Source: a virus (Duplodnaviria; Heunggongvirae; Uroviricota; Caudoviricetes). From it: a stretch of DNA of 36,012 bases. A program made the position numbers and the translations under genes. A model generated the notes under the pieces. It was not told the origin of the DNA and did not search any database. It saw only the letters and a program-made list of their open reading frames with translations. Of the stretch, positions 3,079-34,596 are shown in pieces (position 1 is the first letter of the stretch; every line of letters begins with the position of its first letter). The stretch lies in the IMG/VR virus record IMGVR_UViG_2654587772_000001. One strand, given 5' to 3'.

Positions 3079-3365
3079 ATAATTAACCAGAGTTTTTAAC
3101 GCACTTAATCGTGCGGGGCTTCTTTTTGCCTGGAGAAAGTCATGCATACAGTTTCTGAAAATCAGTGCGGTAAATACGCATTACTGCTGCAACAGGCCTG
3201 AACCGAAGCACAGGCCGACGCTGCGACGCGCTTTTCTTCTCATCTTGACGCCATGATTCGCCACATCACAAAGGCGGAGTTATCCCGCGTGGAGATAGTT
3301 GAGCTGCTCAGTCAGGAGTCGGAAAAATTTCACAATATCGGATTGTCTCGCGGGGAGGTGCTTTG

Positions 3366-3668
3366 ATGTCCTGTTCTCGTTCGGTTGTATTACTGAATAA
3401 CGCCTTAAAAATCGCCGTTATGAAAAATGGTGATTTGTCTCTTATTCAACTTGGTCTTGATAAAGAAAAACGCGAAATAACTGAGTCTGTTATCGCGATT
3501 TATCAGAACGAATTAAATCTCCTGTCTGATGTGGTCAATTTACTTGTTAAACGCGCTGTATTTCACAAGAAAATCTCCTCCGTGGATGAACTGACAAAAT
3601 TAACGACAGAAATTGCCAGCTATTGCGCTGATGAATTTAAAAAACTTAACGACAAAAGGAGCTGGTAA
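3366..3668 (+). CDS. hypothetical early protein (P2 orf81-like)
   Basis: 100-aa ORF from first ATG (the track start at 3363 is TTG); RBS GGGGAGG about 7 nt upstream; stop overlaps next start. Confidence 0.55.
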   Translation: MSCSRSVVLLNNALKIAVMKNGDLSLIQLGLDKEKREITESVIAIYQNELNLLSDVVNLLVKRAVFHKKISSVDELTKLTTEIASYCADEFKKLNDKRSW

Positions 3669-6537: not shown

Positions 6538-7458
6538 ATGGGCTTGGCGATGTATAACGATCCTTATAGTGACCCAAAAGCGTGGGAATCATATTTCAAA
6601 AATATTGTTTGGCTACATTATAAGCCTGCTAACTGTTGTGACTTGCCAGATGAGCATGGAGGCGACTTTGGGCTGGAGTGTTACACTCTGAGTGGTCATG
6701 TTTTTCAGTGTTACTTGCCTGAGCAGTCGAGTGATATTGATAAGCTTTATAAAGCGCAACAAAAAAAGATTTATACTGATATAAAAAAGTTTTCTCAGGA
6801 TAACATTAAAGAATTAGAGGAGCTTTTTGGCACATTAAAAATTAGCCGCTGGATATTAGCTACACCATATAATAAATCGGCGAAATTAAGTCAATATTGC
6901 ACAAAAAAATCATTAAAAGTAAGAGAGTTAGGGATTTCTTACGTTGCTGATGATTTTCAAATAGTAGTGCAAACAGATCGAAATTATATAGAAGAAGCGT
7001 TCTTTCTTCGCAAAAATAACTATCAATTAAGCTTTAATATAAATGATGCGACGGCTGAGAATGCTGCTAACTTTATTAGTGAAAATACATCTTTTTTAGA
7101 TAAGCTAAATTTAAAATTACCTAAGATAAATGATGATGTATCTAGGCAGGGTTTATATAGAGAGTTTTTAATACAAAAATATCTTGATTATCAAAACTTG
7201 CTGGATGCTTTGAAGAGAGACTGGGTTGATATCTATGAAATTATCTATAACTGTGTTCAACATAGAGAACGTAATTTGGTAGGTCTCTTTCTTCTTACTT
7301 CATCAGATGCGAAACCATCAGATATAATGAAAGATGAAATCGCTTTGTTAAAGAAATGTATTGAAGAGGAAGTTAGTACGCTTAAACAGGCTGACTTGGA
7401 TAAGATAACATGGGGAGTTATTTCTGATTGGCTTATAAGATGCCCTTTAGATTTTTAG
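6538..7458 (+). CDS. hypothetical protein, gene 1 of the AT-rich cargo operon (candidate effector component)
   Basis: 306-aa ORF in AT-rich DNA at the tin/old position; no motif recognised by eye apart from a Cys/His-rich N-terminal patch (CCDLPDEHGGDFGLECYTLSGHVFQCY); weak RBS. Confidence 0.6.
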   Translation: MGLAMYNDPYSDPKAWESYFKNIVWLHYKPANCCDLPDEHGGDFGLECYTLSGHVFQCYLPEQSSDIDKLYKAQQKKIYTDIKKFSQDNIKELEELFGTLKISRWILATPYNKSAKLSQYCTKKSLKVRELGISYVADDFQIVVQTDRNYIEEAFFLRKNNYQLSFNINDATAENAANFISENTSFLDKLNLKLPKINDDVSRQGLYREFLIQKYLDYQNLLDALKRDWVDIYEIIYNCVQHRERNLVGLFLLTSSDAKPSDIMKDEIALLKKCIEEEVSTLKQADLDKITWGVISDWLIRCPLDF

Positions 7459-7459
7459 A

Positions 7460-7936
7460 ATGGAAAAGCAAATGCATATAACGATAGATGAAATAATAGG
7501 AAGGCCGTTTACGTTTAATAAACGACCTGAACATTTGCCATGTGATATGAGACCATTGTGGCGTTGCAGTTTGTTGCTGATAATATTCCTTGTCACAGGG
7601 AGAGCTGGTTGCTGTTCTTTAAAAAAACTTCATTTAATTAATTGGATGTTAAAGTCAGAGAATAATGAAGCAATGTTTGAATTCTGGCTTTTAAACAAAG
7701 AAGGTTTAAAGCCTGAAGTAAGATTGGATCCAACTTTAGATAGAGCAATACAGCTATTATTAGCAGAGGATTTTATTTTGAGAAATGAACGAGCGTTCAA
7801 AATAAATGAAAAGGGGCTTAAGGTCGCTGAGAAATTGCTTTCTCTTGATGTGTTCAAAGAAGAAAGGTTGGTGCTAAATAAACATAAGGCTGGACTGTCC
7901 GAAACTAACATTAATAAAATATTTCAGGTGGGTTAA
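7460..7936 (+). CDS. hypothetical small protein, gene 2 of the cargo operon (candidate middle/adaptor component)
   Basis: 158-aa ORF; its ATG lies 1 nt after the gene 1 stop and its stop 1 nt before the gene 3 ATG, indicating translational coupling. Confidence 0.55.
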   Translation: MEKQMHITIDEIIGRPFTFNKRPEHLPCDMRPLWRCSLLLIIFLVTGRAGCCSLKKLHLINWMLKSENNEAMFEFWLLNKEGLKPEVRLDPTLDRAIQLLLAEDFILRNERAFKINEKGLKVAEKLLSLDVFKEERLVLNKHKAGLSETNINKIFQVG

Positions 7937-7937
7937 T

Positions 7938-9959
7938 ATGTCGTTGGAAATTATTTCATTGGAGTTAGTAGCAAATACTTCGGATGGGCGTTATGGTGTT
8001 AGTATACCTTTTTCAAATGGCTTGTTTTTATTAAGAGTTGAGAATTCTCATGGTAAATCAACTTGCATGAATGGGATTGCATATGCACTTGGGATGGAAA
8101 AGGCATTAGGTGTCGGTTCTGGAAAAATCCCATTCCCTCCATCTTTGACTAGAGCACTAACGACAAAAGATAATGTTGAAGTTAGTGTAATATCATCTTA
8201 TGTTTTGCTAAAAATAAAGAATCATAAGGGAATAGAAGCATCTTTGAAAAGGAATATTATCGGTCACGATAATAATAATGTTATTTATATAGATGAGAAG
8301 AATAATGTAAAAAGTAAGAGTGGTACTTATTTTTTACATAGAGAGGGCGATACTGAAAGGGAACGTGGTTTCTATAAGTGGTTAGCTGATTTTATAGGTT
8401 GGAGTTTGCCAAATGTTCCAAACCATAATGGGAAGGACACTATTCTTTATCCATCCGTACTTTTCCCTGCATGGTATGTTGAGCAAAAAAAAGGATGGTC
8501 GTCAATTATGGCGACTGTACCAACACAATTTGGAATTAAAGAGCCAAAGAAAAGAGCTCTAGAATTTTTAATGTCTCTTGATGTTAATGATAATATTTTA
8601 TTGCGTAGTTCGTTAAGAAATGAACTTGATATTATTTATCATGATTGGAAGTTAATTAAACACAATGCAGAAGTTATTGCTTCTAAATTGTCGTCAGTTG
8701 TCACAGGGATTCCTGAACAACCAGTGGCAAAATTTGATCATTATAAGATAGATTTGATTATTAAAAATGGTAGCGTCGTTAGATCTATTGTTGATGTTCG
8801 TAATGAACTGGAAAAAGAGTTGCAAGAAATTAAGTTTGACACTCTTGGTGAGCAAGAAGAACAAACTTTACAATTATCAGTGGTTAAGTTATTAGGTCAA
8901 AAAAATGATGAAATTAACTCTCTGGAATTAAAGATTAAAGAGATTTGTGAGCATAGAAGTTATATTCAATATCAAATTCAGGCGACCAAAAACAGATTGT
9001 ATAATCTGTTGGAAGATAAAAGGAAGTATGAAGATTTAAAGAAAATATCATCTTCGGATGCGTATAAGTCAACAGATTTAATGTCAAATATTTGTCCGAC
9101 TTGTGGTGCAAGTTATAATGATAATTTGCTAAGTTTTTCATCGCAAGAAAATCTGATGACATATGAAGATAGTTTGAACTTTATTAAAGAGCAAGTAAAA
9201 GCATTTGAGTTTGTTCTGTCGGATAGTGAAAAGCAATTAAAGCTTAAAGATGTTGAGAGGAGTGATTTAGAGGGGGAAATAGCCAAGATTAGAGTTGATA
9301 TTAATGCATTAAGGGAGTCAAAATATCCCTCAATGGTTGTTCAGGAGGAGTTTCTGAGACGTAAAATAAACATTGAGAATAAAATTAATGCCATTAACGA
9401 TGGCATTAAAAGTATATTGGACATTAGACTGGAGTTGGATTCATTACACCGTAGATATAAAAAGCTTATCGCGAAAAGAAAAGGGTTGCCAGATAATTTC
9501 TTGTCGCGTAATGATGCCGATAAGTTAAAATTTCTTAATAAAGAAGTCGTTGCACGATTAGAAAAATATAATTTTACAAGTTTTGATTCTAAACTTGTGT
9601 CAATATCAGAAGATAATTACTTACCTACTAGGGAAGGATATGATATAGGTTTTGACACATCAGCTAGTGATGGAATAAGAATCATTTGGGGTTATTTAAT
9701 AAGTTTATTTGTTGTTGGTTCTAAATTTCAAACAAATCACCCTGGATTGATTGTGTTTGATGAGCCTCGTCAACAAGAAGCAAATAAAGTAAGTTTTGCC
9801 GAGTTACTTAAAGATGCTGCAGAAACAACAAAAGGACAAGGGCAGATCATTTTTGCTACATCAGAAGATGAAAATGTCTTAAAAGAGGCATTAGAAGGGT
9901 ATGACTATACAATGATATCCTTTGATAAGAACAATGGGAAATTGTTGAGGAAATTATAA
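7938..9959 (+). CDS. SMC/Rad50-like ABC ATPase with coiled coil and CxxC hook (LmuB/DdmC-like), gene 3 of the cargo operon
   Basis: 673 aa; Walker A VENSHGKST (aa 34-42); long E/K/L-rich heptad-like region aa 280-540; CPTC at aa 386-389 (nt 9093..9104) mid coiled coil; signature-like SASDG and Walker B GLIVFDEP (aa 603-610); SD AGGTGG upstream. Confidence 0.75.
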   Translation: MSLEIISLELVANTSDGRYGVSIPFSNGLFLLRVENSHGKSTCMNGIAYALGMEKALGVGSGKIPFPPSLTRALTTKDNVEVSVISSYVLLKIKNHKGIEASLKRNIIGHDNNNVIYIDEKNNVKSKSGTYFLHREGDTERERGFYKWLADFIGWSLPNVPNHNGKDTILYPSVLFPAWYVEQKKGWSSIMATVPTQFGIKEPKKRALEFLMSLDVNDNILLRSSLRNELDIIYHDWKLIKHNAEVIASKLSSVVTGIPEQPVAKFDHYKIDLIIKNGSVVRSIVDVRNELEKELQEIKFDTLGEQEEQTLQLSVVKLLGQKNDEINSLELKIKEICEHRSYIQYQIQATKNRLYNLLEDKRKYEDLKKISSSDAYKSTDLMSNICPTCGASYNDNLLSFSSQENLMTYEDSLNFIKEQVKAFEFVLSDSEKQLKLKDVERSDLEGEIAKIRVDINALRESKYPSMVVQEEFLRRKINIENKINAINDGIKSILDIRLELDSLHRRYKKLIAKRKGLPDNFLSRNDADKLKFLNKEVVARLEKYNFTSFDSKLVSISEDNYLPTREGYDIGFDTSASDGIRIIWGYLISLFVVGSKFQTNHPGLIVFDEPRQQEANKVSFAELLKDAAETTKGQGQIIFATSEDENVLKEALEGYDYTMISFDKNNGKLLRKL

Positions 9960-13250: not shown

Positions 13251-13865
13251 ATGGCAAAAAAAGTCTCAAAATTCTTTCGTATCGGCGTTGAGGGTGACAC
13301 CTGTGACGGGCGTGTCATCAGTGCGCAGGATATTCAGGAAATGGCTGAAACCTTTGACCCGCGTGTCTACGGTTGCCGCATTAACCTGGAACATCTGCGC
13401 GGCATCCTGCCTGACGGTATTTTTAAACGTTATGGCGATGTGGTCGAACTGAAGGCCGAAAAGATTGATGACGATTCGGCGCTGAAAGGCAAATGGGCGC
13501 TGTTTGCGAAAATCACCCCGACCGATGACCTTATCGCGATGAACAAGGCCGCGCAGAAGGTCTATACCTCAATGGAAATTCAGCCGAACTTTGCCAACAC
13601 CGGCAAATGTTATCTGGTGGGGCTGGCCGTCACCGATGACCCGGCAAGCCTCGGCACGGAATACCTGGAATTCTGCCGCACGGCAAAACACAACCCTCTG
13701 AACCGCTTCAAATTAAGCCCTGAAAACCTGATTTCAGTGGCAACGCCCGTTGAGCTGGAATTTGAAGACCTGCCTGAAACCGTGTTCACCGCCCTGACCG
13801 AAAAGGTGAAATCCATTTTTGGCCGCAAACAGGCCAGCGATGACGCCCTGATGACGAACTGCTGA
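13251..13865 (+). CDS. O: capsid scaffolding protein/protease O (shorter than canonical)
   Basis: First ATG 13251 (MAKKVSKFFRIGVEGDTCDGR...) gives 204 aa; track ORF starts upstream without a plausible start; N-terminus matches P2 gpO. Confidence 0.85.
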   Translation: MAKKVSKFFRIGVEGDTCDGRVISAQDIQEMAETFDPRVYGCRINLEHLRGILPDGIFKRYGDVVELKAEKIDDDSALKGKWALFAKITPTDDLIAMNKAAQKVYTSMEIQPNFANTGKCYLVGLAVTDDPASLGTEYLEFCRTAKHNPLNRFKLSPENLISVATPVELEFEDLPETVFTALTEKVKSIFGRKQASDDALMTNC

Positions 13866-18336: not shown

Positions 18337-18766
18337 TGACGTCACGGTGCTGAAAACTAACCCCGATATGCTGCGGATATTCGTGGATAACGGGAGTATT
18401 GCCTCCACGCTGGCGGAGTCGTTGTCATTCGAAAAGCGTTACACGCTCAATGTCATTGTGACCGACTTTACCGGTGATTTTGACCTGCTCATCGTGCCGG
18501 TGCTGGCGTGGCTGCGGGAAAATCAGCCCGACATCATGACCACCGACGAAGGCCAGAAAAAGGGCTTCACGTTTTATGCAGACATCAACAATGACAGCAG
18601 CTTTGATATCAGCATCAGCCTGATGCTGACCGAGCGCACGCTGGTCAGTGAGGTGGACGGCGCACTGCATGTGAAGAATATCCCGGAACCCACGCCGCCG
18701 GAGCCGGTCACCCGCCCGATGGAGCTTTATATCAATGGTGAACTGGTGAGCAAGTGGGATGAATGA
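18299..18766 (+). CDS. R: tail completion protein R
   Basis: 155-aa ORF; P2 gpR length and position. Confidence 0.85.
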   Translation: MLKPDSLRRALTDDVTVLKTNPDMLRIFVDNGSIASTLAESLSFEKRYTLNVIVTDFTGDFDLLIVPVLAWLRENQPDIMTTDEGQKKGFTFYADINNDSSFDISISLMLTERTLVSEVDGALHVKNIPEPTPPEPVTRPMELYINGELVSKWDE

Positions 18767-19220
18767 GTTTAAGCGTTTTGAAGACCGGCTGACCGGACTG
18801 ATTGAGTCGCTGTCACCGTCAGGGCGTCGTCGACTGGCGGTAGATATTGCGAAGAAGCTGCGCCAGCGCCAGCAGCAGCGAATTAAATTACAAAAAGCCC
18901 CGGATGGTACGCCGTATGTACCGAGAAAAAACCAACCAGTACGAAATAAGAAAGGCCGGATAAAGCGGGAAATGTTTATGAAATTACGCACTAACCGGTT
19001 TATGAAAGCAACCGGTAGCGAGAGTGCCGCGGTGGTGGAGTTTGCCAGCGGAGTGCAACGAATTGCGCGAGTGCATCAGTATGGTTTAAAAGATAGACCC
19101 AATCCCGACGTTAAACCTATTAAGTATGATGAACGTAAACTACTTGGTTTTTCACATAATGATATTGACTTTATAGAATCAACGATCATTAATTGTCTTC
19201 TGGAAAAATCCAGAGAATAG
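18759..19220 (+). CDS. S: tail completion protein S (3' end divergent and AT-rich)
   Basis: 153-aa ORF; N-terminus matches P2 gpS; the last roughly 45 codons are AT-rich. Confidence 0.8.
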   Translation: MNEFKRFEDRLTGLIESLSPSGRRRLAVDIAKKLRQRQQQRIKLQKAPDGTPYVPRKNQPVRNKKGRIKREMFMKLRTNRFMKATGSESAAVVEFASGVQRIARVHQYGLKDRPNPDVKPIKYDERKLLGFSHNDIDFIESTIINCLLEKSRE

Positions 19221-19235
19221 GAAGGTAAAGTACAA

Positions 19236-19775
19236 GTGACATGTAAAAAGAATGAAGGTGATGTTGTAAAGAAAATTGAACTGGTGCTGAAAACAATCGC
19301 GCGGACGGATTCTTATTTAAATTCAGCCAATACTAAATCAACGATATTACTAAGCTTAGCTTCAGCTGTAATTGTTGCTATTATAGCAAATTTTGACAAA
19401 GTTATATGTCTGGTAGATGTGGATAGTGATAGGATTTTTCTCTCTCTTTTATTGATTGTAATAGTTGGGTTATTGGTGATCTCTTTGTTATTTTCTCTAA
19501 AAGGTGTTACTCCAAATATCTCTAAGAGTGATAAGGAGAATACTTTTTCATTTGTTGATATATCAAGTTATTATAGTAGTCTTGATTGCTATTCTAGTAG
19601 TTTTAAGTCAGTGAGTGATCTGGAGTTGTTGGAGCAGTTAATTGCATTGAATTATACTCTTTCCAGAGCATTAACTAGCAAATATGAGATGCAAATCATA
19701 GCCATTGACTTTATAAAAATGGCTGTTTATGTGCTTTGTTTTTTAATATATGTGGTTGCTTTATCTAATTGGTGA
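19236..19775 (+). CDS. small membrane protein with 3 predicted TM helices (candidate membrane effector, SLATT/PycTM-like)
   Basis: 179-aa ORF from GTG 19236 (no in-frame ATG until near the end); SD AGGAAGG upstream; hydrophobic stretches STILLSLASAVIVAIIANF, IFLSLLLIVIVGLLVISLLFSL, MAVYVLCFLIYVVALS; AT-rich. Confidence 0.55.
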   Translation: MTCKKNEGDVVKKIELVLKTIARTDSYLNSANTKSTILLSLASAVIVAIIANFDKVICLVDVDSDRIFLSLLLIVIVGLLVISLLFSLKGVTPNISKSDKENTFSFVDISSYYSSLDCYSSSFKSVSDLELLEQLIALNYTLSRALTSKYEMQIIAIDFIKMAVYVLCFLIYVVALSNW

Positions 19776-19785
19776 AGGTTTTTGT

Positions 19786-21138
19786 ATGTCCATAAAGAGT
19801 ATTTATTTAGTATTAGATGAAAGGCTGGAAGAGATAATTTCAAAATCAAAATCGCAATCAGTCCATGATGCTATATTTGAATCAGTGGATAATACACAGT
19901 TGGCCACGGAGAGCTTAAGTAAATCTTCTGGTTTCGTAAGAAGTTCTATTTCATTGAAAAAAGATGTAGGTGGAGCTGATGTTCAAAGTTATCAGGTGAA
20001 AGATATTGTTAGAAATAAATTTGGCAAGCACGGTCCACTCATGACAAGTTTTGGATGTCATCCGGACTTTAATAAAATGGATGATGGTGAGGTGAGAAAT
20101 GGTTATTCCATTACCATGTTTATGGATATAATCGGCTCAACTAAACTTGGGGTTGTTTTTCCACCAGAAATAGTATTTAGAATCAAAAATGATATTATAA
20201 GATGTGCGATCGAAACAGTGAATGCATTTGATGGTCACGTCCATAGAATTATGGGTGATGCAGTAATGGCATTTTTCCGAAGTAATGACCGATATAAAAA
20301 CAATAAGATCGCAGACAGTGCAATTGATGCAATAAACTGTGCCGTTGTTTTGATTGAAATGTTCAAGGGGGTTGTTATACCTAAATTGAGTGATTTGGGA
20401 GTTGACGAAAACTTAGGAATAAGAATTGGTCTTGACTATGGCCCTCACGAGGAAGTGGTGTGGTCAAAATATGGCTATATGGAAAGTCATGAAGTGACTG
20501 CGACATCTTTTTTTGTTGATGTTGCGGCAAAACTTCAGCAAAAAGCTCCTAAAAACTCAATTATGATAGGTGCAAGTTTTGTAGAGTTATTAGGCCTTGA
20601 TGATGTTCAATTAAAACATAAAATTAACAGAAACAATGGCGTAGAACACAAGGAATTGTATTTAACCCCAAATTATAAAGATGCTTCAGGCAAACCAATA
20701 AATTACAGACAATATGTATTTGATAACGAACGTTATTGTAATTTGCTGCCTATAAATGATGAGGGGGGTAAACTCATTGTAAAAGCAACGCTTAAGAAGA
20801 GTGAAAATGATGTGTCTGATGATGAGTATATTTGTTGTTCTCGAATGATAAAAAAGGGTATGGGTATCTCATTTAAAGGGTACTATTACTCACAAGAACA
20901 GTACTCTAATCCCAGGTTCAAATTTCGTGTCGAAAATACAGGTCCTGATGCAGGTAATGTTGATAATAAGGGTAATCATGAGTCATATGAGGTAGCAAGG
21001 TACACTGGCGAGCGTTATTTTGCTAAGCATTGGGAAGATTGTCATTACAAAGGACTGCATTATATGTTTGTATCTTTTTGGAATGGGGATCAATTAATAG
21101 AAAGGGAGAGGTGTTTTTCAGTTTTTATTAACGATTAA
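19786..21138 (+). CDS. class III nucleotidyl cyclase-domain protein (candidate PycC-like cyclase)
   Basis: 450 aa from ATG 19786 (SD GAAGG 8 nt upstream; track start 19750 overlaps the upstream gene); motifs SITMFMDIIGSTKL (aa 108-121), HRIMGDAVMAFF (153-164), GIRIGLDYGP (211-220), SFFVDVAAKL (241-250) resembling the FxDIxGFT / IGDxxMA / GIHxGxV / VNxAARL blocks of adenylyl/guanylyl-type cyclases. Confidence 0.7.
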   Translation: MSIKSIYLVLDERLEEIISKSKSQSVHDAIFESVDNTQLATESLSKSSGFVRSSISLKKDVGGADVQSYQVKDIVRNKFGKHGPLMTSFGCHPDFNKMDDGEVRNGYSITMFMDIIGSTKLGVVFPPEIVFRIKNDIIRCAIETVNAFDGHVHRIMGDAVMAFFRSNDRYKNNKIADSAIDAINCAVVLIEMFKGVVIPKLSDLGVDENLGIRIGLDYGPHEEVVWSKYGYMESHEVTATSFFVDVAAKLQQKAPKNSIMIGASFVELLGLDDVQLKHKINRNNGVEHKELYLTPNYKDASGKPINYRQYVFDNERYCNLLPINDEGGKLIVKATLKKSENDVSDDEYICCSRMIKKGMGISFKGYYYSQEQYSNPRFKFRVENTGPDAGNVDNKGNHESYEVARYTGERYFAKHWEDCHYKGLHYMFVSFWNGDQLIERERCFSVFIND

Positions 21139-21238
21139 ATTGTGATTTATTTGAGGGGGGGAATGTAGTCTGTTGTATCATACCTCACCAAAGCATCAAA
21201 ATTTGCCGCTAGTGTAAACTAGCGGCATCCTTCCCGTT

Positions 21239-21874
21239 ATGAACACTCTCGCAAATATTCAGGAACTCGCGCGCGCACTGCGCAACATGATTCGCACCGG
21301 CATTATCATCGAAACCGACCTTAACGCCGGTCGCTGCCGTGTGCAGACCGGCGGCATGTGCACCGACTGGCTTCAGTGGCTGACCTGTCGTGCCGGGCGT
21401 TCGCGCACATGGTGGGCACCTTCCGTGGGGGAGCAGGTGCTGATTCTGGCCGTGGGCGGTGAACTTGACACGGCGTTTGTTCTGCCGGGGATTTATTCCG
21501 GCGATAACCCCGCGCCGTCTGCGTCGGCGGATGCCCTGCATATCCGTTTCCCTGACGGGGCGGTGATTGAGTATGAACCCGAAACCAGTGCACTCACGGT
21601 AAGCGGAATTAAAACGGCCAGCGTGACGGCTTCTGATTCTGTTACTGCCACGGTGCCGGTGGTCACGGTGAAAGCATCAACCCGCGTCACCCTGGACACA
21701 CCGGAGGTGGTCTGCACCAACAGGCTGATTACCGGCACGCTGGAAGTGCAGAAGGGCGGGACGATGCGCGGCAACATTGAACACACCGGCGGTGAACTCT
21801 CATCAAACGGTAAGGTACTGCATACCCATAAACACCCCGGCGACAGCGGCGGCACAACCGGGAGTCCTCTATGA
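21239..21874 (+). CDS. V: baseplate spike protein V
   Basis: 211-aa ORF; P2 gpV length and sequence. Confidence 0.9.
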   Translation: MNTLANIQELARALRNMIRTGIIIETDLNAGRCRVQTGGMCTDWLQWLTCRAGRSRTWWAPSVGEQVLILAVGGELDTAFVLPGIYSGDNPAPSASADALHIRFPDGAVIEYEPETSALTVSGIKTASVTASDSVTATVPVVTVKASTRVTLDTPEVVCTNRLITGTLEVQKGGTMRGNIEHTGGELSSNGKVLHTHKHPGDSGGTTGSPL

Positions 21875-25057: not shown

Positions 25058-25659
25058 TGCATAAAGCAATATTAAATAGTGAGCTCATTGCAACAAAGGC
25101 AGGGGATGTTACCGTTTATAACTATGATGGTGAAACACGGGAATATATTTCCACTTCAAATGAATATCTTGCCGTTGGTGTCGGCATTCCGGCATGTTCC
25201 TGTTTAGATGCCCCTGGCACACATAAGGCTGGTTATGCAATCTGCCGTTCTGCAGATTTTAACTCATGGGAATATGTGCCAGACCATCGCGGTGAAACGG
25301 TCTATAGCACCGAAACAGGAGAATCAAAAGAAATCACCGCTCCGGGTGATTACCCTGAAAATACAACCACTATCGCCCCATTAACGCCATATGATAAATG
25401 GGATGGTGAGAAATGGGTGACGGATACCGAGGCACAGCATAGCGCCGCAGTAGATGCAGCAGAAGCACAGCGCCAGTCGCTGATTGATACTGCAATGGCT
25501 TCCATCAGTCTGATTCAACTGAAATTGCAGGCCGGACGTAAACTGACGCAGGCAGAAACAACCCGGCTTAACGCTGTGCTGGATTACATTGACGCGGTGA
25601 CGGCAACAGATACCAGCACCGCGCCGGATGTCATCTGGCCTGAACTGCCGGAGGCGTAG
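25057..25659 (+). CDS. G: tail fibre assembly chaperone (G / Tfa)
   Basis: 200-aa ORF with start overlapping the H stop; Tfa-like sequence with conserved C-terminal region (RLNAVLDYIDAVTATDTSTAPDVIWPELP). Confidence 0.8.
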   Translation: MHKAILNSELIATKAGDVTVYNYDGETREYISTSNEYLAVGVGIPACSCLDAPGTHKAGYAICRSADFNSWEYVPDHRGETVYSTETGESKEITAPGDYPENTTTIAPLTPYDKWDGEKWVTDTEAQHSAAVDAAEAQRQSLIDTAMASISLIQLKLQAGRKLTQAETTRLNAVLDYIDAVTATDTSTAPDVIWPELPEA

Positions 25660-26083
25660 GCCATTCAATATCTGGTGCACTGGAGGTATCAACCAGCTCC
25701 AGTGCATCCAGATAATCCAGCCACAAATTATATTGCGCCAGTTCCTCACCTTTCAGACGACCAATAGCGGCTTTACCGGGCCATTGCTTACTGTTCATGT
25801 ATTCGTTGGCCTGGTTAATTAGTAGCTGTCTTTCTGATTCAGTAATTTCAATAAGCTCTTCATGCGTGGGTGGAGGAATATCTGCCCACGCAGGCAGCCC
25901 ATCATCTCCGGCAATACGGATTTTTCCTTGTGGCGGTTCAGCCATAAACTCACTGATAATATTTTGATTTACTTCCTTAGCGTCTGATAAATCCCATCCC
26001 TCTGATTTATATTTATCAATCATATCCACAGGGAAAAAAGCATTATGCCTTGCGCTATAAACATATTCGTTCATATAAATCAC
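25631..26083 (-). CDS. alternative tail fibre assembly chaperone (inverted orientation)
   Basis: 150-aa ORF convergent with G, with related C-terminus (YNLWLDYLDALELVDTSSAPDIEWPTPP). Confidence 0.7.
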   Translation of the reverse strand: MIYMNEYVYSARHNAFFPVDMIDKYKSEGWDLSDAKEVNQNIISEFMAEPPQGKIRIAGDDGLPAWADIPPPTHEELIEITESERQLLINQANEYMNSKQWPGKAAIGRLKGEELAQYNLWLDYLDALELVDTSSAPDIEWPTPPAVQAR

Positions 26084-26094
26084 CCTGAATAAAA

Positions 26095-26463
26095 TTACTC
26101 ACCAACAGCCCACCAACTGTAATTCATCGATACCGTGTCGCTGGTTGATGACGTTCTGTAAGCAGAATTAAAGCCGGTTAACGTTGGGCCTTCTGCAGTC
26201 ATCACGAACCCTCGCCCAGCGCCTAAAGGCGCACCGCCATCACCAGAATGAGTAAGCATGGCGCAGTCCGCTTTTTTGGGGAAAGGGATGCTGAATGTAA
26301 TTCTCATTGTTTGCGTCGATAATGTCGGCGTAACCGCACCACGACCATATTGCAGGATTTTCCCGTTGGGTAATTTCATCCATCCATCACCACTGGCAAA
26401 AGAGGCCATGTCCGGTATCTGATTTTCCCCTGTCCCCACATCCCGTTTTGCCGCTTCTCTCAA
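26095..26463 (-). CDS. alternative tail fibre C-terminal segment (promoter-less and start-less; would fuse to H after inversion)
   Basis: Open frame on the minus strand running to the crossover site at about 26466 with no credible own start; Gly/Thr/Ser-rich fibre-tip-like sequence. Confidence 0.6.
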   Translation of the reverse strand: MREAAKRDVGTGENQIPDMASFASGDGWMKLPNGKILQYGRGAVTPTLSTQTMRITFSIPFPKKADCAMLTHSGDGGAPLGAGRGFVMTAEGPTLTGFNSAYRTSSTSDTVSMNYSWWAVGE

Positions 26464-26480
26464 ACCAACGTTTTATGGAA
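26455..26480. repeat. invertase crossover site (hix/gix-like), right copy
   Basis: TTCTCTCAAACCAACGTTTTATGGAA; inverted-repeat partner of 24548..24573. Confidence 0.45.
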
Positions 26481-26570
26481 TCGGTTAAATATGATGTTGA
26501 AAGAAGGGAGTGTCCTAGTATTGATTGTTAGATAAAAATGGAAAGTGCTGATTGTAACGGTATATTTTAA

Positions 26571-26598
26571 GATGGTAACACCAAATGGTGCTACCATC
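26571..26598. terminator. candidate bidirectional rho-independent terminator
   Basis: Hairpin GATGGTAACACC-AAAT-GGTGCTACCATC followed by TTTATT on the + strand and by an A/T-rich tract on the - strand; lies just downstream of the minus-strand 105-aa gene. Confidence 0.4.
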
Positions 26599-26606
26599 TT
26601 TATTAG

Positions 26607-26924
26607 TTATCTGTTCCTTCTGAGGATTCCGCTACTCCCTTGTGTTGTAGGGTTTAATTTTTTCCAATAATGATAACCTTGTGATGTAATCCTTAGAGAG
26701 GCAGTATCTACACTCCATCCATCAATACTTTCAGGAGAACCATCGAAGATTACCTTTCCTGTAAGATACCCATCGTCATGCAGAAAGGCGATATATCCAT
26801 AAACTTCTTTTAAATCACCAATTTCATTGACTAGGCGTTCCCACGCTTGAACAGTGATTCTCTCTGGATAGGCTTCGACAAAATATTTCAGTGTGGTAGT
26901 TTTTTTATTGGTATCGATGTTCAT
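26607..26924 (-). CDS. hypothetical protein (AT-rich moron between the invertible segment and the invertase)
   Basis: 105-aa ORF with ATG at 26924 and a good SD (AAGGAAA) upstream on the minus strand; AT-rich; no recognisable motif. Confidence 0.5.
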   Translation of the reverse strand: MNIDTNKKTTTLKYFVEAYPERITVQAWERLVNEIGDLKEVYGYIAFLHDDGYLTGKVIFDGSPESIDGWSVDTASLRITSQGYHYWKKLNPTTQGSSGILRRNR

Positions 26925-27122
26925 CAGATTTTCCTTTTATTGAGGTCAACCTATCTTACCATACTTATTTGTTTCACATGGGAATGCTAAGTGGGCTATG
27001 TATCCACTATCAGTAAATATTCTTATCCAGCAAGATTACTGTAACTGAGAGCTCCATAGCCTTGTCCGCTTGTACATATATAGATAATTCTGTGTCATTA
27101 TTCTGTTTTTATAGGGATTTTT

Positions 27123-27716
27123 ATGCGTATAGGTTATGTTCGTGTATCAACAAATGACCAGAACACGGAATTGCAGCGTAACGCGCTCGAGTGCGCAGGA
27201 TGTGAGCTGATTTTTGAGGATAAAATCAGCGGCACGAAGTCCGACCGACCGGGGCTGAAAAAACTGCTCAGAACATTATCAGCAGGTGACACTCTGGTAG
27301 TCTGGAAGCTGGACAGGCTGGGGCGTAGTATGCGGCATCTGGTCATTCTGGTTGAGGAACTGCGCGAACGCGGCATTAATTTTCGCAGCCTGACAGATGC
27401 TATTGATACCAGCACGCCGATGGGGCGTTTTTTCTTTCATGTGATGGGTGCCCTGGCTGAAATGGAACGAGAACTCATTGTCGAACGGACTCGGGCCGGG
27501 CTGGAAGCGGCCAGAGCCAAAGGTCGTATTGGTGGCAGACGTCCTAAACTCACCACGAGTGAGTGGGAGCAGGTCGGGCGTTTGCTGGCTGCAGGGGAGT
27601 CACGTCAACGCGTGGCACTGATTTTTGATATTGGCCTGTCCACGCTCTATAAAAAATTTCCCTCATCAGCGATAAAGAATAAATTGTGTCATCCCTTAGC
27701 CAACCGGGACAAATAG
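27123..27716 (+). CDS. serine DNA invertase (Hin/Gin/Pin/Cin family)
   Basis: 197-aa ORF; N-terminal resolvase catalytic domain with GYVRVST-DQ (Ser nucleophile), LVVWKLDRLGRS, and a C-terminal HTH; closely resembles Hin/Gin. Confidence 0.9.
   Translation: MRIGYVRVSTNDQNTELQRNALECAGCELIFEDKISGTKSDRPGLKKLLRTLSAGDTLVVWKLDRLGRSMRHLVILVEELRERGINFRSLTDAIDTSTPMGRFFFHVMGALAEMERELIVERTRAGLEAARAKGRIGGRRPKLTTSEWEQVGRLLAAGESRQRVALIFDIGLSTLYKKFPSSAIKNKLCHPLANRDK
27684..27710 (+). promoter_or_regulatory. late-promoter upstream element (candidate PF) TTGTGTCATCCCTTAGCCAACCGGGAC
   Basis: 21/27 identical to the element upstream of O (13146..13172); ends about 66 nt before the FI start; lies inside the 3' end of the invertase gene. 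Confidence 0.45.
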
Positions 27717-34479: not shown

Positions 34480-34506
34480 AAAAAATAAGCCCGTGTAAGG
34501 GAGATT
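34480..34506. repeat. attR core (27-bp direct repeat), also the 3' end of cyaR
   Basis: Identical to 476..502. Confidence 0.8.
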
Positions 34507-34566
34507 ACACAGGCTAAGGAGGTGGTTCCTGGTACAGCTAGCATTTTATGGGTTATGTTTTTCAGC
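34480..34566 (-). ncRNA. cyaR: CRP-dependent sRNA CyaR (RyeE)
   Basis: Reverse complement reads GCTGAAAAACATAACCCATAAAATGCTAGCTGTACCAGGAACCACCTCCTTAGCCTGTGTAATCTCCCTTACACGGGCTTATTTTTT (87 nt), matching the remembered E. coli CyaR, with a terminal hairpin and U-tail. Confidence 0.85.
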
Positions 34567-34596
34567 GAAACGGATGATAACCTTAATAAATGCAGC

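Follow-up and report, generated by a model that had tools for sequence, protein, structure and literature searches.

What kind of module do two genes form when they sit side by side in an AT-rich island that has the P2 gene S on one side and V on the other, inside a P2-like prophage? The host is Escherichia coli ST2747, where the prophage is integrated between yegR and yegQ, and the island was analysed within a stretch of 36,012 nucleotides (hereafter the window; Table 1). An earlier note on this DNA had read the pair as a Pycsar-like abortive-infection cargo module, atypical both because the membrane gene comes first and because the membrane protein has no cyclic nucleotide (cNMP)-binding domain. 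Profile, structure and gene-neighbourhood evidence supports the kind of module proposed there, but not its atypical character. We put the probability at roughly 0.88 that the two genes of the island together make up a complete Pycsar anti-phage system, which the prophage carries as cargo in its orf30 slot. The system is one that is already known and annotated, and it is an ordinary Pycsar.

Table 1. Features of the S-V island and its borders (positions are those of the window)
Feature	Position	Strand	Description
Gene S	18759-19220		Phage_tail_S (Pfam 3.5e-31); upstream neighbour of the island
Left junction	19090-19235	+	AT-rich 3' end of S (stop 19220) and 15-nt spacer ahead of PycTM
Candidate promoter	19165-19170 and 19188-19193	+	TTGACT, 17 nt, ATTAAT; in the left junction
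Ribosome-binding site	19221-19226	+	GGAAGG, ahead of pycTM
pycTM (ORF1)	19236-19775	+	179 aa, GTG start; Pfam/PADLOC PycTM
Ribosome-binding site	19771-19778	+	GGTGAAGG, ahead of pycC
pycC (ORF2)	19786-21138	+	450 aa
Class III cyclase catalytic domain	20044-20751	+	~residues 87-322; D114, D158; F112, R154, M156
AGS-C domain of PycC	20773-21132	+	~residues 330-449
Right junction and flank	21139-21238	+	~25 nt of cassette tail, then conserved P2 S-V intergenic region ahead of gene V
Hairpin	21206-21227	+	GCCGCTAG-tgtaaa-CTAGCGGC; conserved, in the right flank
Gene V	21239-21874		Phage_base_V and Phage_spike (Pfam); downstream neighbour of the island

The island stands out by its composition, with a GC content of 0.35 over positions 19,221-21,238 against 0.53-0.60 in the flanks. 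Both neighbours were recognised by Pfam and the two genes lie on the same strand with a gap of 10 nt between the stop of ORF1 and ORF2, so that the earlier description of an AT-rich insert with two co-directional genes holds, coordinates included. What it overlooked is that the left edge lies inside gene S: the AT-rich stretch begins at ~19090, where GC falls from ~0.5 to 0.3, within the last ~40 codons of that gene. The start of ORF2 was set according to its homologues and RefSeq, the mechanical list of open reading frames having placed it at 19750 (a 462-aa translation). The two proteins are identical to RefSeq entries from E. coli ST2747, ORF2 to WP_025210649.1 and ORF1 to WP_025210650.1, the latter named 'Pycsar system effector family protein', while no NCBIfam model matches either of them.

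ORF2 is covered almost from end to end by the PADLOC PycC profile PDLC00764 (1.6e-128, profile positions 12-448 of 449) and belongs to a family of at least 475 relatives. The cyclase domain that had been proposed for it is recovered by Pfam Guanylate_cyc, whose gathering cut-off of 21.9 bits is exceeded with a score of 25.3, and the AlphaFold2 (AF2) model has a pLDDT of 84.8 and a pTM of 0.85. By sequence and by fold alike, the best solved relative is EaPycC of Elizabethkingia anophelis (8JSF; phmmer 1.5e-25, family profile 2.1e-48, Foldseek 9e-20 with a TM score of 0.82), with 27% identity over the structural alignment. The two aspartates singled out in the earlier note, D114 and D158, occupy the alignment positions of D102 and D146, which bind metal in EaPycC, and F112 and R154 are the counterparts of F100 and R142 in its CTP pocket (residue roles from PMC11224242). 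At a third position M156 replaces Q144, which makes one difference among the three residues that EaPycC has been shown to require for cCMP synthesis. Among 30 PycC relatives F112, D114 and the whole of H151-V-H-R-I-M-G-D158 are invariant. An N-terminal helix is also common to the two enzymes, as is a disordered linker of ~40 residues, the low-confidence stretch 26-65 of the PycC model paralleling residues 22-66 that are unresolved in EaPycC. They differ at the other end: EaPycC (342 aa) has a 'Y-shaped' beta element there and no AGS-C domain, whereas PycC of the window ends in one.

This C-terminal AGS-C domain had escaped the earlier note. In the AF2 model the region consists of beta strands only and is Ig-like. 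Pfam AGS_C scores 26.4-26.5 bits on ORF2 itself, marginally below the cut-off of 26.7, but it matches all 30 PycC relatives (best 1.4e-13) and 120 of 120 among the relatives listed for the family. The C-termini of PADLOC CBASS cyclases match the same region, at residues 340-454 of the 462-aa translation, which correspond to 328-442 in the 450-aa numbering. The PycC family profile also finds 9ARD (1e-8), the structure of an AGS-C domain deposited as 'Cytidylate cyclase'. Fusion of AGS-C to PycC has already been described (bioRxiv 10.1101/2023.05.21.541620), and here the domain is presumed to be a sensor or regulatory domain.

The relationship to 9ARD deserves some attention. Searched against plasmids, the 9ARD fragment gave no match, and against the protein database it gave three short fragments only. 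For the catalytic motif the comparison relied on a frameshifted contig: HRxMGD, in the form HRLMGD, is also present in a contig that encodes an AGS-C domain with 96% identity to 9ARD. If 9ARD is EcPycC, then PycC of the window is only ~41-43% identical to it in the catalytic domain, and the AGS-C similarity is detectable only by the family profile. Neither 'Cytidylate cyclase' nor 'EcPycTM' occurs as a name among the members listed of the 90% clusters of the ORF1 and ORF2 proteins.

Which cyclic nucleotide PycC makes may be approached through these relatives. The product cCMP has been assigned to clade E only, while most PycC clades make cUMP (PMC11224242), and in a ranking of PDB entries by sequence similarity the closest match of PycC is by a wide margin the clade E enzyme EaPycC. 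It may nevertheless be that the same architecture and abortive logic work with another messenger, either cUMP or a purine cNMP such as cGMP. Indeed, M156 stands in place of a glutamine that EaPycC needs for cCMP synthesis, and since the methionine is invariant in the AGS-C subfamily, that subfamily may use a nucleotide other than cCMP. Furthermore, the abstract of a 2026 preprint (10.64898/2026.08.12.744502) reports cGMP production by cyclases related to Pycsar, whose partners are TIR or TM effectors ('Pucsar'), so that family membership alone has no power to fix the product of PycC. We consider another messenger unlikely nonetheless, as the two nearest enzymes with a known activity both act as cytidylate cyclases, 8JSZ and 7R65, which synthesise cUMP, match ORF2 at about 1e-1 by sequence, the 9ARD-type 'Cytidylate cyclase' itself carries the methionine, and F112 and R154 agree with the residues of the CTP pocket.

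The partner of this cyclase is a PycTM effector. ORF1 matches Pfam PycTM (PF18967, formerly DUF5706) at 28.0 bits, with a cut-off of 27.2, and PADLOC PycTM PDLC02364 at 8.5e-29 over profile positions 3-151 of 160; three other PADLOC PycTM profiles match as well (2.1e-27, 3.4e-15 and 1.7e-10). A protein with three transmembrane (TM) helices had been predicted, and two approaches agree on this: three hydrophobic segments (~34-54, 66-88 and 155-177; Kyte-Doolittle, 19-residue window, >1.6) fall within three long helices of the AF2 model, which is helical throughout (pLDDT 87.3). In the topology predicted from hydropathy and charge distribution the N-terminus is inside, a cytoplasmic amphipathic helix runs into TM1, and TM2 is followed by a cytoplasmic helical segment of ~65 aa and then by TM3. 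A solved relative of PycTM was found neither by profile search nor by Foldseek (best E = 0.4).

The earlier note was also right that the membrane protein has no cNMP-binding domain: Pfam gave no match to PF00027 at E <= 1 in ORF1 or in 29 relatives. It was mistaken in regarding this as atypical. Neither Pfam PF18967 nor any of the four PADLOC PycTM profiles, which have 74-165 positions, offers room for a cNMP-binding domain, and judged by these sequence profiles the missing domain is a trait of the PycTM family itself, of which such a domain is not a defining feature. It is for PycTIR, the second class of effector, that the literature we read records a cNMP-binding domain (PMC11224242). How, then, might PycTM perceive its signal? 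The family shows no recognisable nucleotide-binding fold. Its invariant residues R23, D25, Y27, A31, N32, K34, P93, F106 and K149 are kept even by the P. aeruginosa homologue, whose identity is 19%. One tentative proposal, which we would not yet favour, is that the PycTM family reads the cyclic nucleotide through a new all-helical site at the membrane interface. The putative sensing site, as tentative as the proposal itself, would comprise R23-x-D25-x-Y27...A31-N32-x-K34 ahead of TM1 and, predicted to lie on one cytoplasmic face with this motif, P93, F106 and K149. Whatever its fate, a short list of invariant PycTM residues is now on hand for mutagenesis.

Because it combines an AGS-C-bearing synthase with a small membrane effector, the island resembles type I CBASS, in which a CD-NTase-AGS-C fusion is paired with a 2TM effector and signalling likewise relies on a nucleotide messenger; several PADLOC CBASS '2TM' effector profiles match ORF1 at 1e-20. 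However, the CBASS synthase is a cGAS/DncV-like nucleotidyltransferase, whereas that of the window has the class III cyclase fold and would make a cyclic mononucleotide. Assignment to CBASS was therefore rejected, since the synthase is not of the SMODS/cGAS-DncV type and only AGS-C and the TM effector family are held in common. The island agrees instead with the PycC + PycTM type, in that it has AGS-C as in PycC of certain clades, a Pfam PycTM, and the catalytic Asp pair with the F/R pocket. Like the Pycsar of E. coli E831, which makes cCMP and blocks T5 and P1 (PMC12393519), it is an E. coli operon of a class III-type cyclase and a small TM effector.

The order of the two genes is equally regular. 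PycTM precedes PycC at all five further kinds of locus that have both genes (Pectobacterium, Klebsiella, P. aeruginosa, Yersinia and Vibrio), and the homologue lists of effector and cyclase have contigs in common; the sole exception to the pairing is an Erwinia copy with a transposase in place of PycTM. The effector-first order, which had been thought unusual, is thus the fixed arrangement of the PycTM-PycC lineage, and a TM-first pair has been termed "a typical Pycsar system" (PMC13069673). The settings of the pair are diverse: Pectobacterium and P. aeruginosa have it on the chromosome, Yersinia in the Q-A hotspot and Vibrio on a small integrative element, and it is found in the S-V slot of E. 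coli prophages, Klebsiella prophages and Klebsiella phage Kp4852-2 (Peduoviridae). Its phage and mobile-element cargo slots lie beside other defence systems. In Kp4852-2 and the Klebsiella prophages the cassette has the same order, spacing, slot and AT-rich 3' end of S as in the window, but the proteins are only ~62% (PycC) and ~53% (PycTM) identical, which indicates an old or independently exchanged allele and not a recent transfer.

The S-V position, orf30, counts with TO and Z/fun among the three regions in which P2-like phages vary horizontally, and non-P2 genes are common there (PMC3091744). Pycsar cargo in this slot was found in 6 of 5,426 complete E. coli genomes. A published survey of defence hotspots in E. 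coli P2-like phages has the cos-proximal A-Q locus as its scope (PMC9122126), and in the literature we found no paper that places Pycsar in the orf30 slot. In the prophage studied here the A-Q hotspot holds a Lamassu system. No Rfam family was found in or near the island.

Comparison with other prophages helps to delimit the cargo. On the right, similarity to prophages whose slot is empty or holds different cargo restarts at ~21160-21222, the arms of the hairpin show compensatory changes in three other prophages, and in empty-slot prophages the hairpin follows S; on this sequence comparison the right flank with the hairpin is phage backbone, not cargo. On the left, other alleles of S in E. coli cease to be similar at the DNA level near the junction, and the junction stretch travels with the cassette: a similar one is present in a Klebsiella P2-like prophage, and a decayed S remnant with stop codons persists upstream of the chromosomal Pectobacterium copy. 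The cassette takes the 3' end of S along with it, which suggests that homologous recombination in S and V transfers it from one phage to another. No direct or inverted repeats that would point to site-specific insertion were found on the flanks of the island, where short matches occur at chance level only.

The left junction also contains candidate expression signals. TTGACT and GATCATTAAT are conserved across all three genera (E. coli, Klebsiella and Pectobacterium), and we infer that TTGACT-17-ATTAAT may act as a promoter with a weak -10 element (ATTAAT). The promoter scan made a different choice (19,151-19,179, which is non-conserved), and promoter-like sites showed no excess over shuffled sequence; the terminator scan was likewise at background. 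The cassette follows S with the same orientation and precedes the conserved hairpin, so its expression might instead be confined to that of the late genes. It stands at the end of the late O-to-S transcription unit, a position that would also suit a lysogenic-conversion or self-regulation module, for instance one that signals lysis timing or host physiology during late expression, and holin-like action is in principle conceivable for a small membrane protein encoded beside the lysis genes. We regard this reading as very improbable, given that the same pair occurs outside phage late operons in the Pectobacterium, P. aeruginosa, Yersinia and Vibrio settings mentioned above and that curated defence profiles cover the two proteins from end to end. 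On the first of these grounds, a role as a holin or in lysis timing was rejected. The cassette is also dispensable for the phage, as the S-V slot is empty in about two thirds of the sampled E. coli P2-like prophages.

It might further be argued that the cassette is an inactive relic. The prophage does show signs of decay, with a truncated scaffold gene O and one more pseudogene with an internal stop, and the cassette differs from the common E. coli allele at seven codons, five of them with a non-synonymous change (G8D, I67L and C118G in PycTM; L8S and A64T in PycC). Yet the cassette itself is unaffected: both reading frames are full length and all family-invariant residues are kept, while the non-synonymous changes sit at variable or disordered positions, and seven differences are too few to infer anything on selection. 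Identical or near-identical 450-aa and 179-aa proteins are moreover found on hundreds of contigs. We therefore give very little credence to a relic and retain the reading of the island as a complete Pycsar system.

How such a system would work in the lysogen can be outlined as follows. The family membership of both proteins, the intact catalytic residues, the conserved pair with its order and the location on mobile elements are direct observations. What we infer is which nucleotide is made, what acts as the trigger, that the nucleotide binds PycTM directly, that the lysogen expresses the cassette, and that it protects. PycC, a class III cyclase that ends in an AGS-C domain, would form a homodimer and stay inactive in the lysogen until infection by another phage activates it, plausibly via the AGS-C domain. 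With D114, D158 and a divalent metal it would then convert a pyrimidine NTP into its cyclic form, in the likeliest case CTP into 3',5'-cCMP, and the cyclic nucleotide would activate PycTM, a helical inner-membrane protein with three TM segments and no classical cNMP-binding domain. PycTM would impair the membrane, and growth would stop before the cycle of the invader ends, that is, by abortive infection. Both the Pycsar logic and membrane impairment by PycTM have been described previously (PMC11224242, PMC10118264).

In summary, the main value of our analysis lies in the correct annotation of this island. The orf30 slot serves defence cargo, and the same Pycsar cassette is also present in the other P2 hotspot in Yersinia. 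With Lamassu at the cos-proximal locus and what is most probably Pycsar in orf30, the prophage would carry two stacked defence systems, which fits P2-like prophages as carriers of anti-phage cargo.

By its profile matches, the two-gene island between tail genes S and V of this P2-like prophage belongs to a known system, Pycsar: standard defence-annotation profiles recognise both proteins, and a RefSeq name has already been given. The window is identical to part of the E. coli ST2747 chromosome, and the prophage, complete and inserted between yegR and yegQ, drops to a GC content of ~0.35 across roughly 19090-21160, against 0.53-0.60 outside. The 179-aa PycTM (transmembrane effector) and the 450-aa PycC (nucleotide cyclase) have verbatim copies in public databases, and the earlier note's description of an AT-rich insert with two co-directional genes 10 nt apart was confirmed in every detail. 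Elsewhere in the prophage, RefSeq records a truncated capsid scaffold gene O and a DUF2732 gene with an internal stop; particle formation may have been lost. In the tail-fibre region, tail-fibre-assembly and gp53-like genes lie in opposite orientations, with a 'recombinase family protein' gene after them, an arrangement that looks like an invertible host-range switch.

Coordinates of the features discussed; positions are those of the window or, after an L handle, those within that retrieved comparison locus
Feature	Position	Remarks
DUF2732 gene	3142-3366	Internal stop
Lamassu island	6550-9959 (+)	Between replication gene A and portal gene Q
Gene O, capsid scaffold	13251-13859	C-terminus missing
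Gene S, tail completion	18759-19220	Upstream of island; Phage_tail_S 3.5e-31
Candidate cassette promoter	TTGACT 19165-19170; ATTAAT 19188-19193	17-nt spacer
pycTM, 179-aa ORF	19236-19775	GTG start; same strand as pycC; RefSeq gene model
pycC, 450-aa ORF	19786-21138	Same strand as pycTM; RefSeq gene model
Hairpin	21206-21227	11 nt 5' of V start codon
Gene V, baseplate spike	21239-21874	Downstream of island
Tail-fibre region	25631-27716
'Recombinase family protein' gene	27123-27716
sRNA gene	34483-34568 (-)	Adjoins prophage
246-aa slot protein, E. coli NS-NP030	L002 1730-2470	Between S and V
Decayed P2 S 3' end, Pectobacterium versatile	L003 5210-5416	tblastn E = 0.002
PycTM-PycC pair, Yersinia enterocolitica	L010 2945-4853	Portal-to-replication (Q-A) hotspot of P2-like prophage
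PycC-type gene, Logan ERR10498409 contig	L014 1-1148

The PADLOC PycC profile (PDLC00764) matches the 450-aa protein over its full length (1.6e-128, profile positions 12-448 of 449) and Pfam Guanylate_cyc exceeds its threshold (25.3 bits against 21.9), which bears out the cyclase domain proposed earlier. The closest solved relative is EaPycC (8JSF), a clade E Pycsar enzyme whose product is cCMP (PMC11224242). It matched PycC by phmmer (1.5e-25), the PycC family profile (2.1e-48) and, by Foldseek, the AlphaFold model of PycC (pLDDT 84.8; 9e-20, TM 0.82); the cUMP synthases 8JSZ and 7R65 reached only ~0.1 by sequence. D114 and D158, singled out in the earlier note, indeed align with catalytic D102 and D146 of EaPycC, as do F112 and R154 with its CTP-pocket residues F100 and R142, and all four are invariant in 30 relatives from Enterobacterales, Vibrio, Aeromonas, Pseudoalteromonas and Pseudomonas. 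The third pocket residue differs, being Q144 in EaPycC but an invariant Met (M156) in the subfamily of the window enzyme. This difference, together with the cGMP-making relatives reported in a preprint abstract, leaves some room for a product other than cCMP, which we consider rather unlikely.

Residues 330-449 of PycC, all-beta in the AlphaFold model, are an AGS-C domain: Pfam AGS_C scores slightly below its cut-off on the window protein (26.4 against 26.7 bits) and matches 30/30 relatives (best 1.4e-13). The AGS-C-PycC fusion has been reported previously, and in such fusions and in type I CBASS the domain is suspected to tune the range of phages sensed (bioRxiv 10.1101/2023.05.21.541620). 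PDB entry 9ARD, an isolated AGS-C domain whose parent protein was deposited as "Cytidylate cyclase", is matched by the PycC family profile at 1e-8. A PycC-type gene on a Logan contig encodes an AGS-C domain 96% identical to 9ARD and has HRLMGD at the position of the window pocket motif with M156; since this 9ARD-type relative shares the Met, the difference from EaPycC at this position is no argument against cCMP. The catalytic domains of the two are 41-43% identical, and the window cyclase would constitute a distinct subfamily at that level if 9ARD derives from the enzyme of the experimentally tested E. coli E831 system. The Logan gene is broken into three reading frames; next to it are genes for a resolvase and for GmrSD-type restriction.

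The 179-aa protein, named "Pycsar system effector family protein" in RefSeq, passes the Pfam PycTM threshold (PF18967) and matches four PADLOC PycTM profiles (best 8.5e-29, over nearly the whole profile) as well as CBASS "2TM" effector profiles. Its three hydrophobic segments (about residues 34-54, 66-88 and 155-177) agree with the three helices predicted earlier. No cNMP-binding domain family matched PycTM or 29 relatives even at E <= 1, so the absence noted earlier stands; it is, however, the norm for the family rather than atypical, the reference PycTM profiles (74-165 positions) being too short to hold such a domain, which is documented for the other effector class, PycTIR (PMC11224242). 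The AlphaFold model (pLDDT 87.3) is entirely helical: a long N-terminal helix runs into TM1, and TM2 and a pair of short helices precede another long helix, whose end is TM3; neither profile nor fold searches found a solved relative. Charge distribution suggests that the N-terminus is inside. Nine residues (R23, D25, Y27, A31, N32, K34, P93, F106 and K149) are unchanged even in the P. aeruginosa homologue (19% identity), and in the predicted N-in topology all would lie at the cytoplasmic membrane face, which marks them out as the first candidates for a site of ligand binding or gating.

The effector-first order, previously thought atypical, was found at every other retrieved locus type holding both genes, and a TM-first pair has been called "a typical Pycsar system" (PMC13069673). 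Such loci comprise one on the Pectobacterium chromosome, the slot between S and V in P2-like prophages of Klebsiella and in Klebsiella phage Kp4852-2, an integrase-adjoining island in P. aeruginosa, a small integrative element in Vibrio and the Yersinia enterocolitica Q-A hotspot, where PycC is 66% identical to that of the window. The Yersinia cassette adjoins an HTH/Peptidase_M78 gene pair. An Erwinia PycC copy has a transposase in the expected PycTM position. Because the pair is also found away from phage late operons, and both ORFs are undamaged and widely distributed, it is unlikely that the cassette serves the prophage's own biology or is an inactive relic. The standard Pycsar mechanism (PMC11224242, PMC10118264, PMC12393519) is the best-supported reading: PycC would be activated on infection, the cyclic pyrimidine that builds up (cCMP being the most probable) would activate PycTM, and the resulting membrane impairment would stop growth of the infected cell.

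On its left side the AT-rich DNA begins inside gene S, whose last ~40 codons are an AT-rich allele common to the window and Klebsiella cassettes. In Pectobacterium versatile, where ssb and a LacI-family regulator gene flank the pair, a decayed P2 S 3' end with stop codons persists just upstream, which suggests that this chromosomal copy derived from a P2-like phage. No flanking repeats of the island were found, and the shared and persisting S 3' end suggests exchange via recombination within S and V, not site-specific insertion. A generic promoter scan gave background level; the top candidate promoter for the cassette is a weak match within this 3' stretch of S, TTGACT-17 nt-ATTAAT, kept in E. 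coli, Klebsiella and Pectobacterium. A hairpin before V, GCCGCTAG-tgtaaa-CTAGCGGC, keeps its stem in three further P2-like prophages, where the arms carry compensatory changes (GCTGCTGG/CCAGCGGC, GCCGACAG/CTGGCGGC and GCCGCCGG/CCGGCGGC), and lies directly 3' of S in empty-slot prophages; it may mark where the late transcript of O to S ends, or be an element in the 5'-UTR of V.

Three regions of P2-like phages have been described as accepting foreign genes, among them the orf30 locus between S and V (PMC3091744); a published survey of E. coli defence hotspots was concerned instead with the cos-proximal locus (PMC9122126). Of the 1,586 E. coli records that match S/V, ~58 spread across the set were sampled; V directly follows S in roughly two thirds of these (span 1,155 nt), and about one third have one hypothetical gene between them (inserts of ~0.6-1.2 kb), such as that for the NS-NP030 protein, which matched no PADLOC profile. 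The Pycsar cassette occupies the slot in only 6 of 5,426 complete E. coli genomes (1,583 with S/V matches). The cos-proximal hotspot of the window prophage holds another AT-rich island, a Lamassu defence system, whose three proteins, all labelled 'hypothetical protein' in RefSeq, match PADLOC LmuA (9.4e-30), LmuC (2.3e-23) and LmuB (1.1e-98). For the specialist the S-V island holds no surprise; its residual interest lies in how a PycTM without a cNMP-binding domain reads its signal and in the carriage of defence cargo in the orf30 slot.
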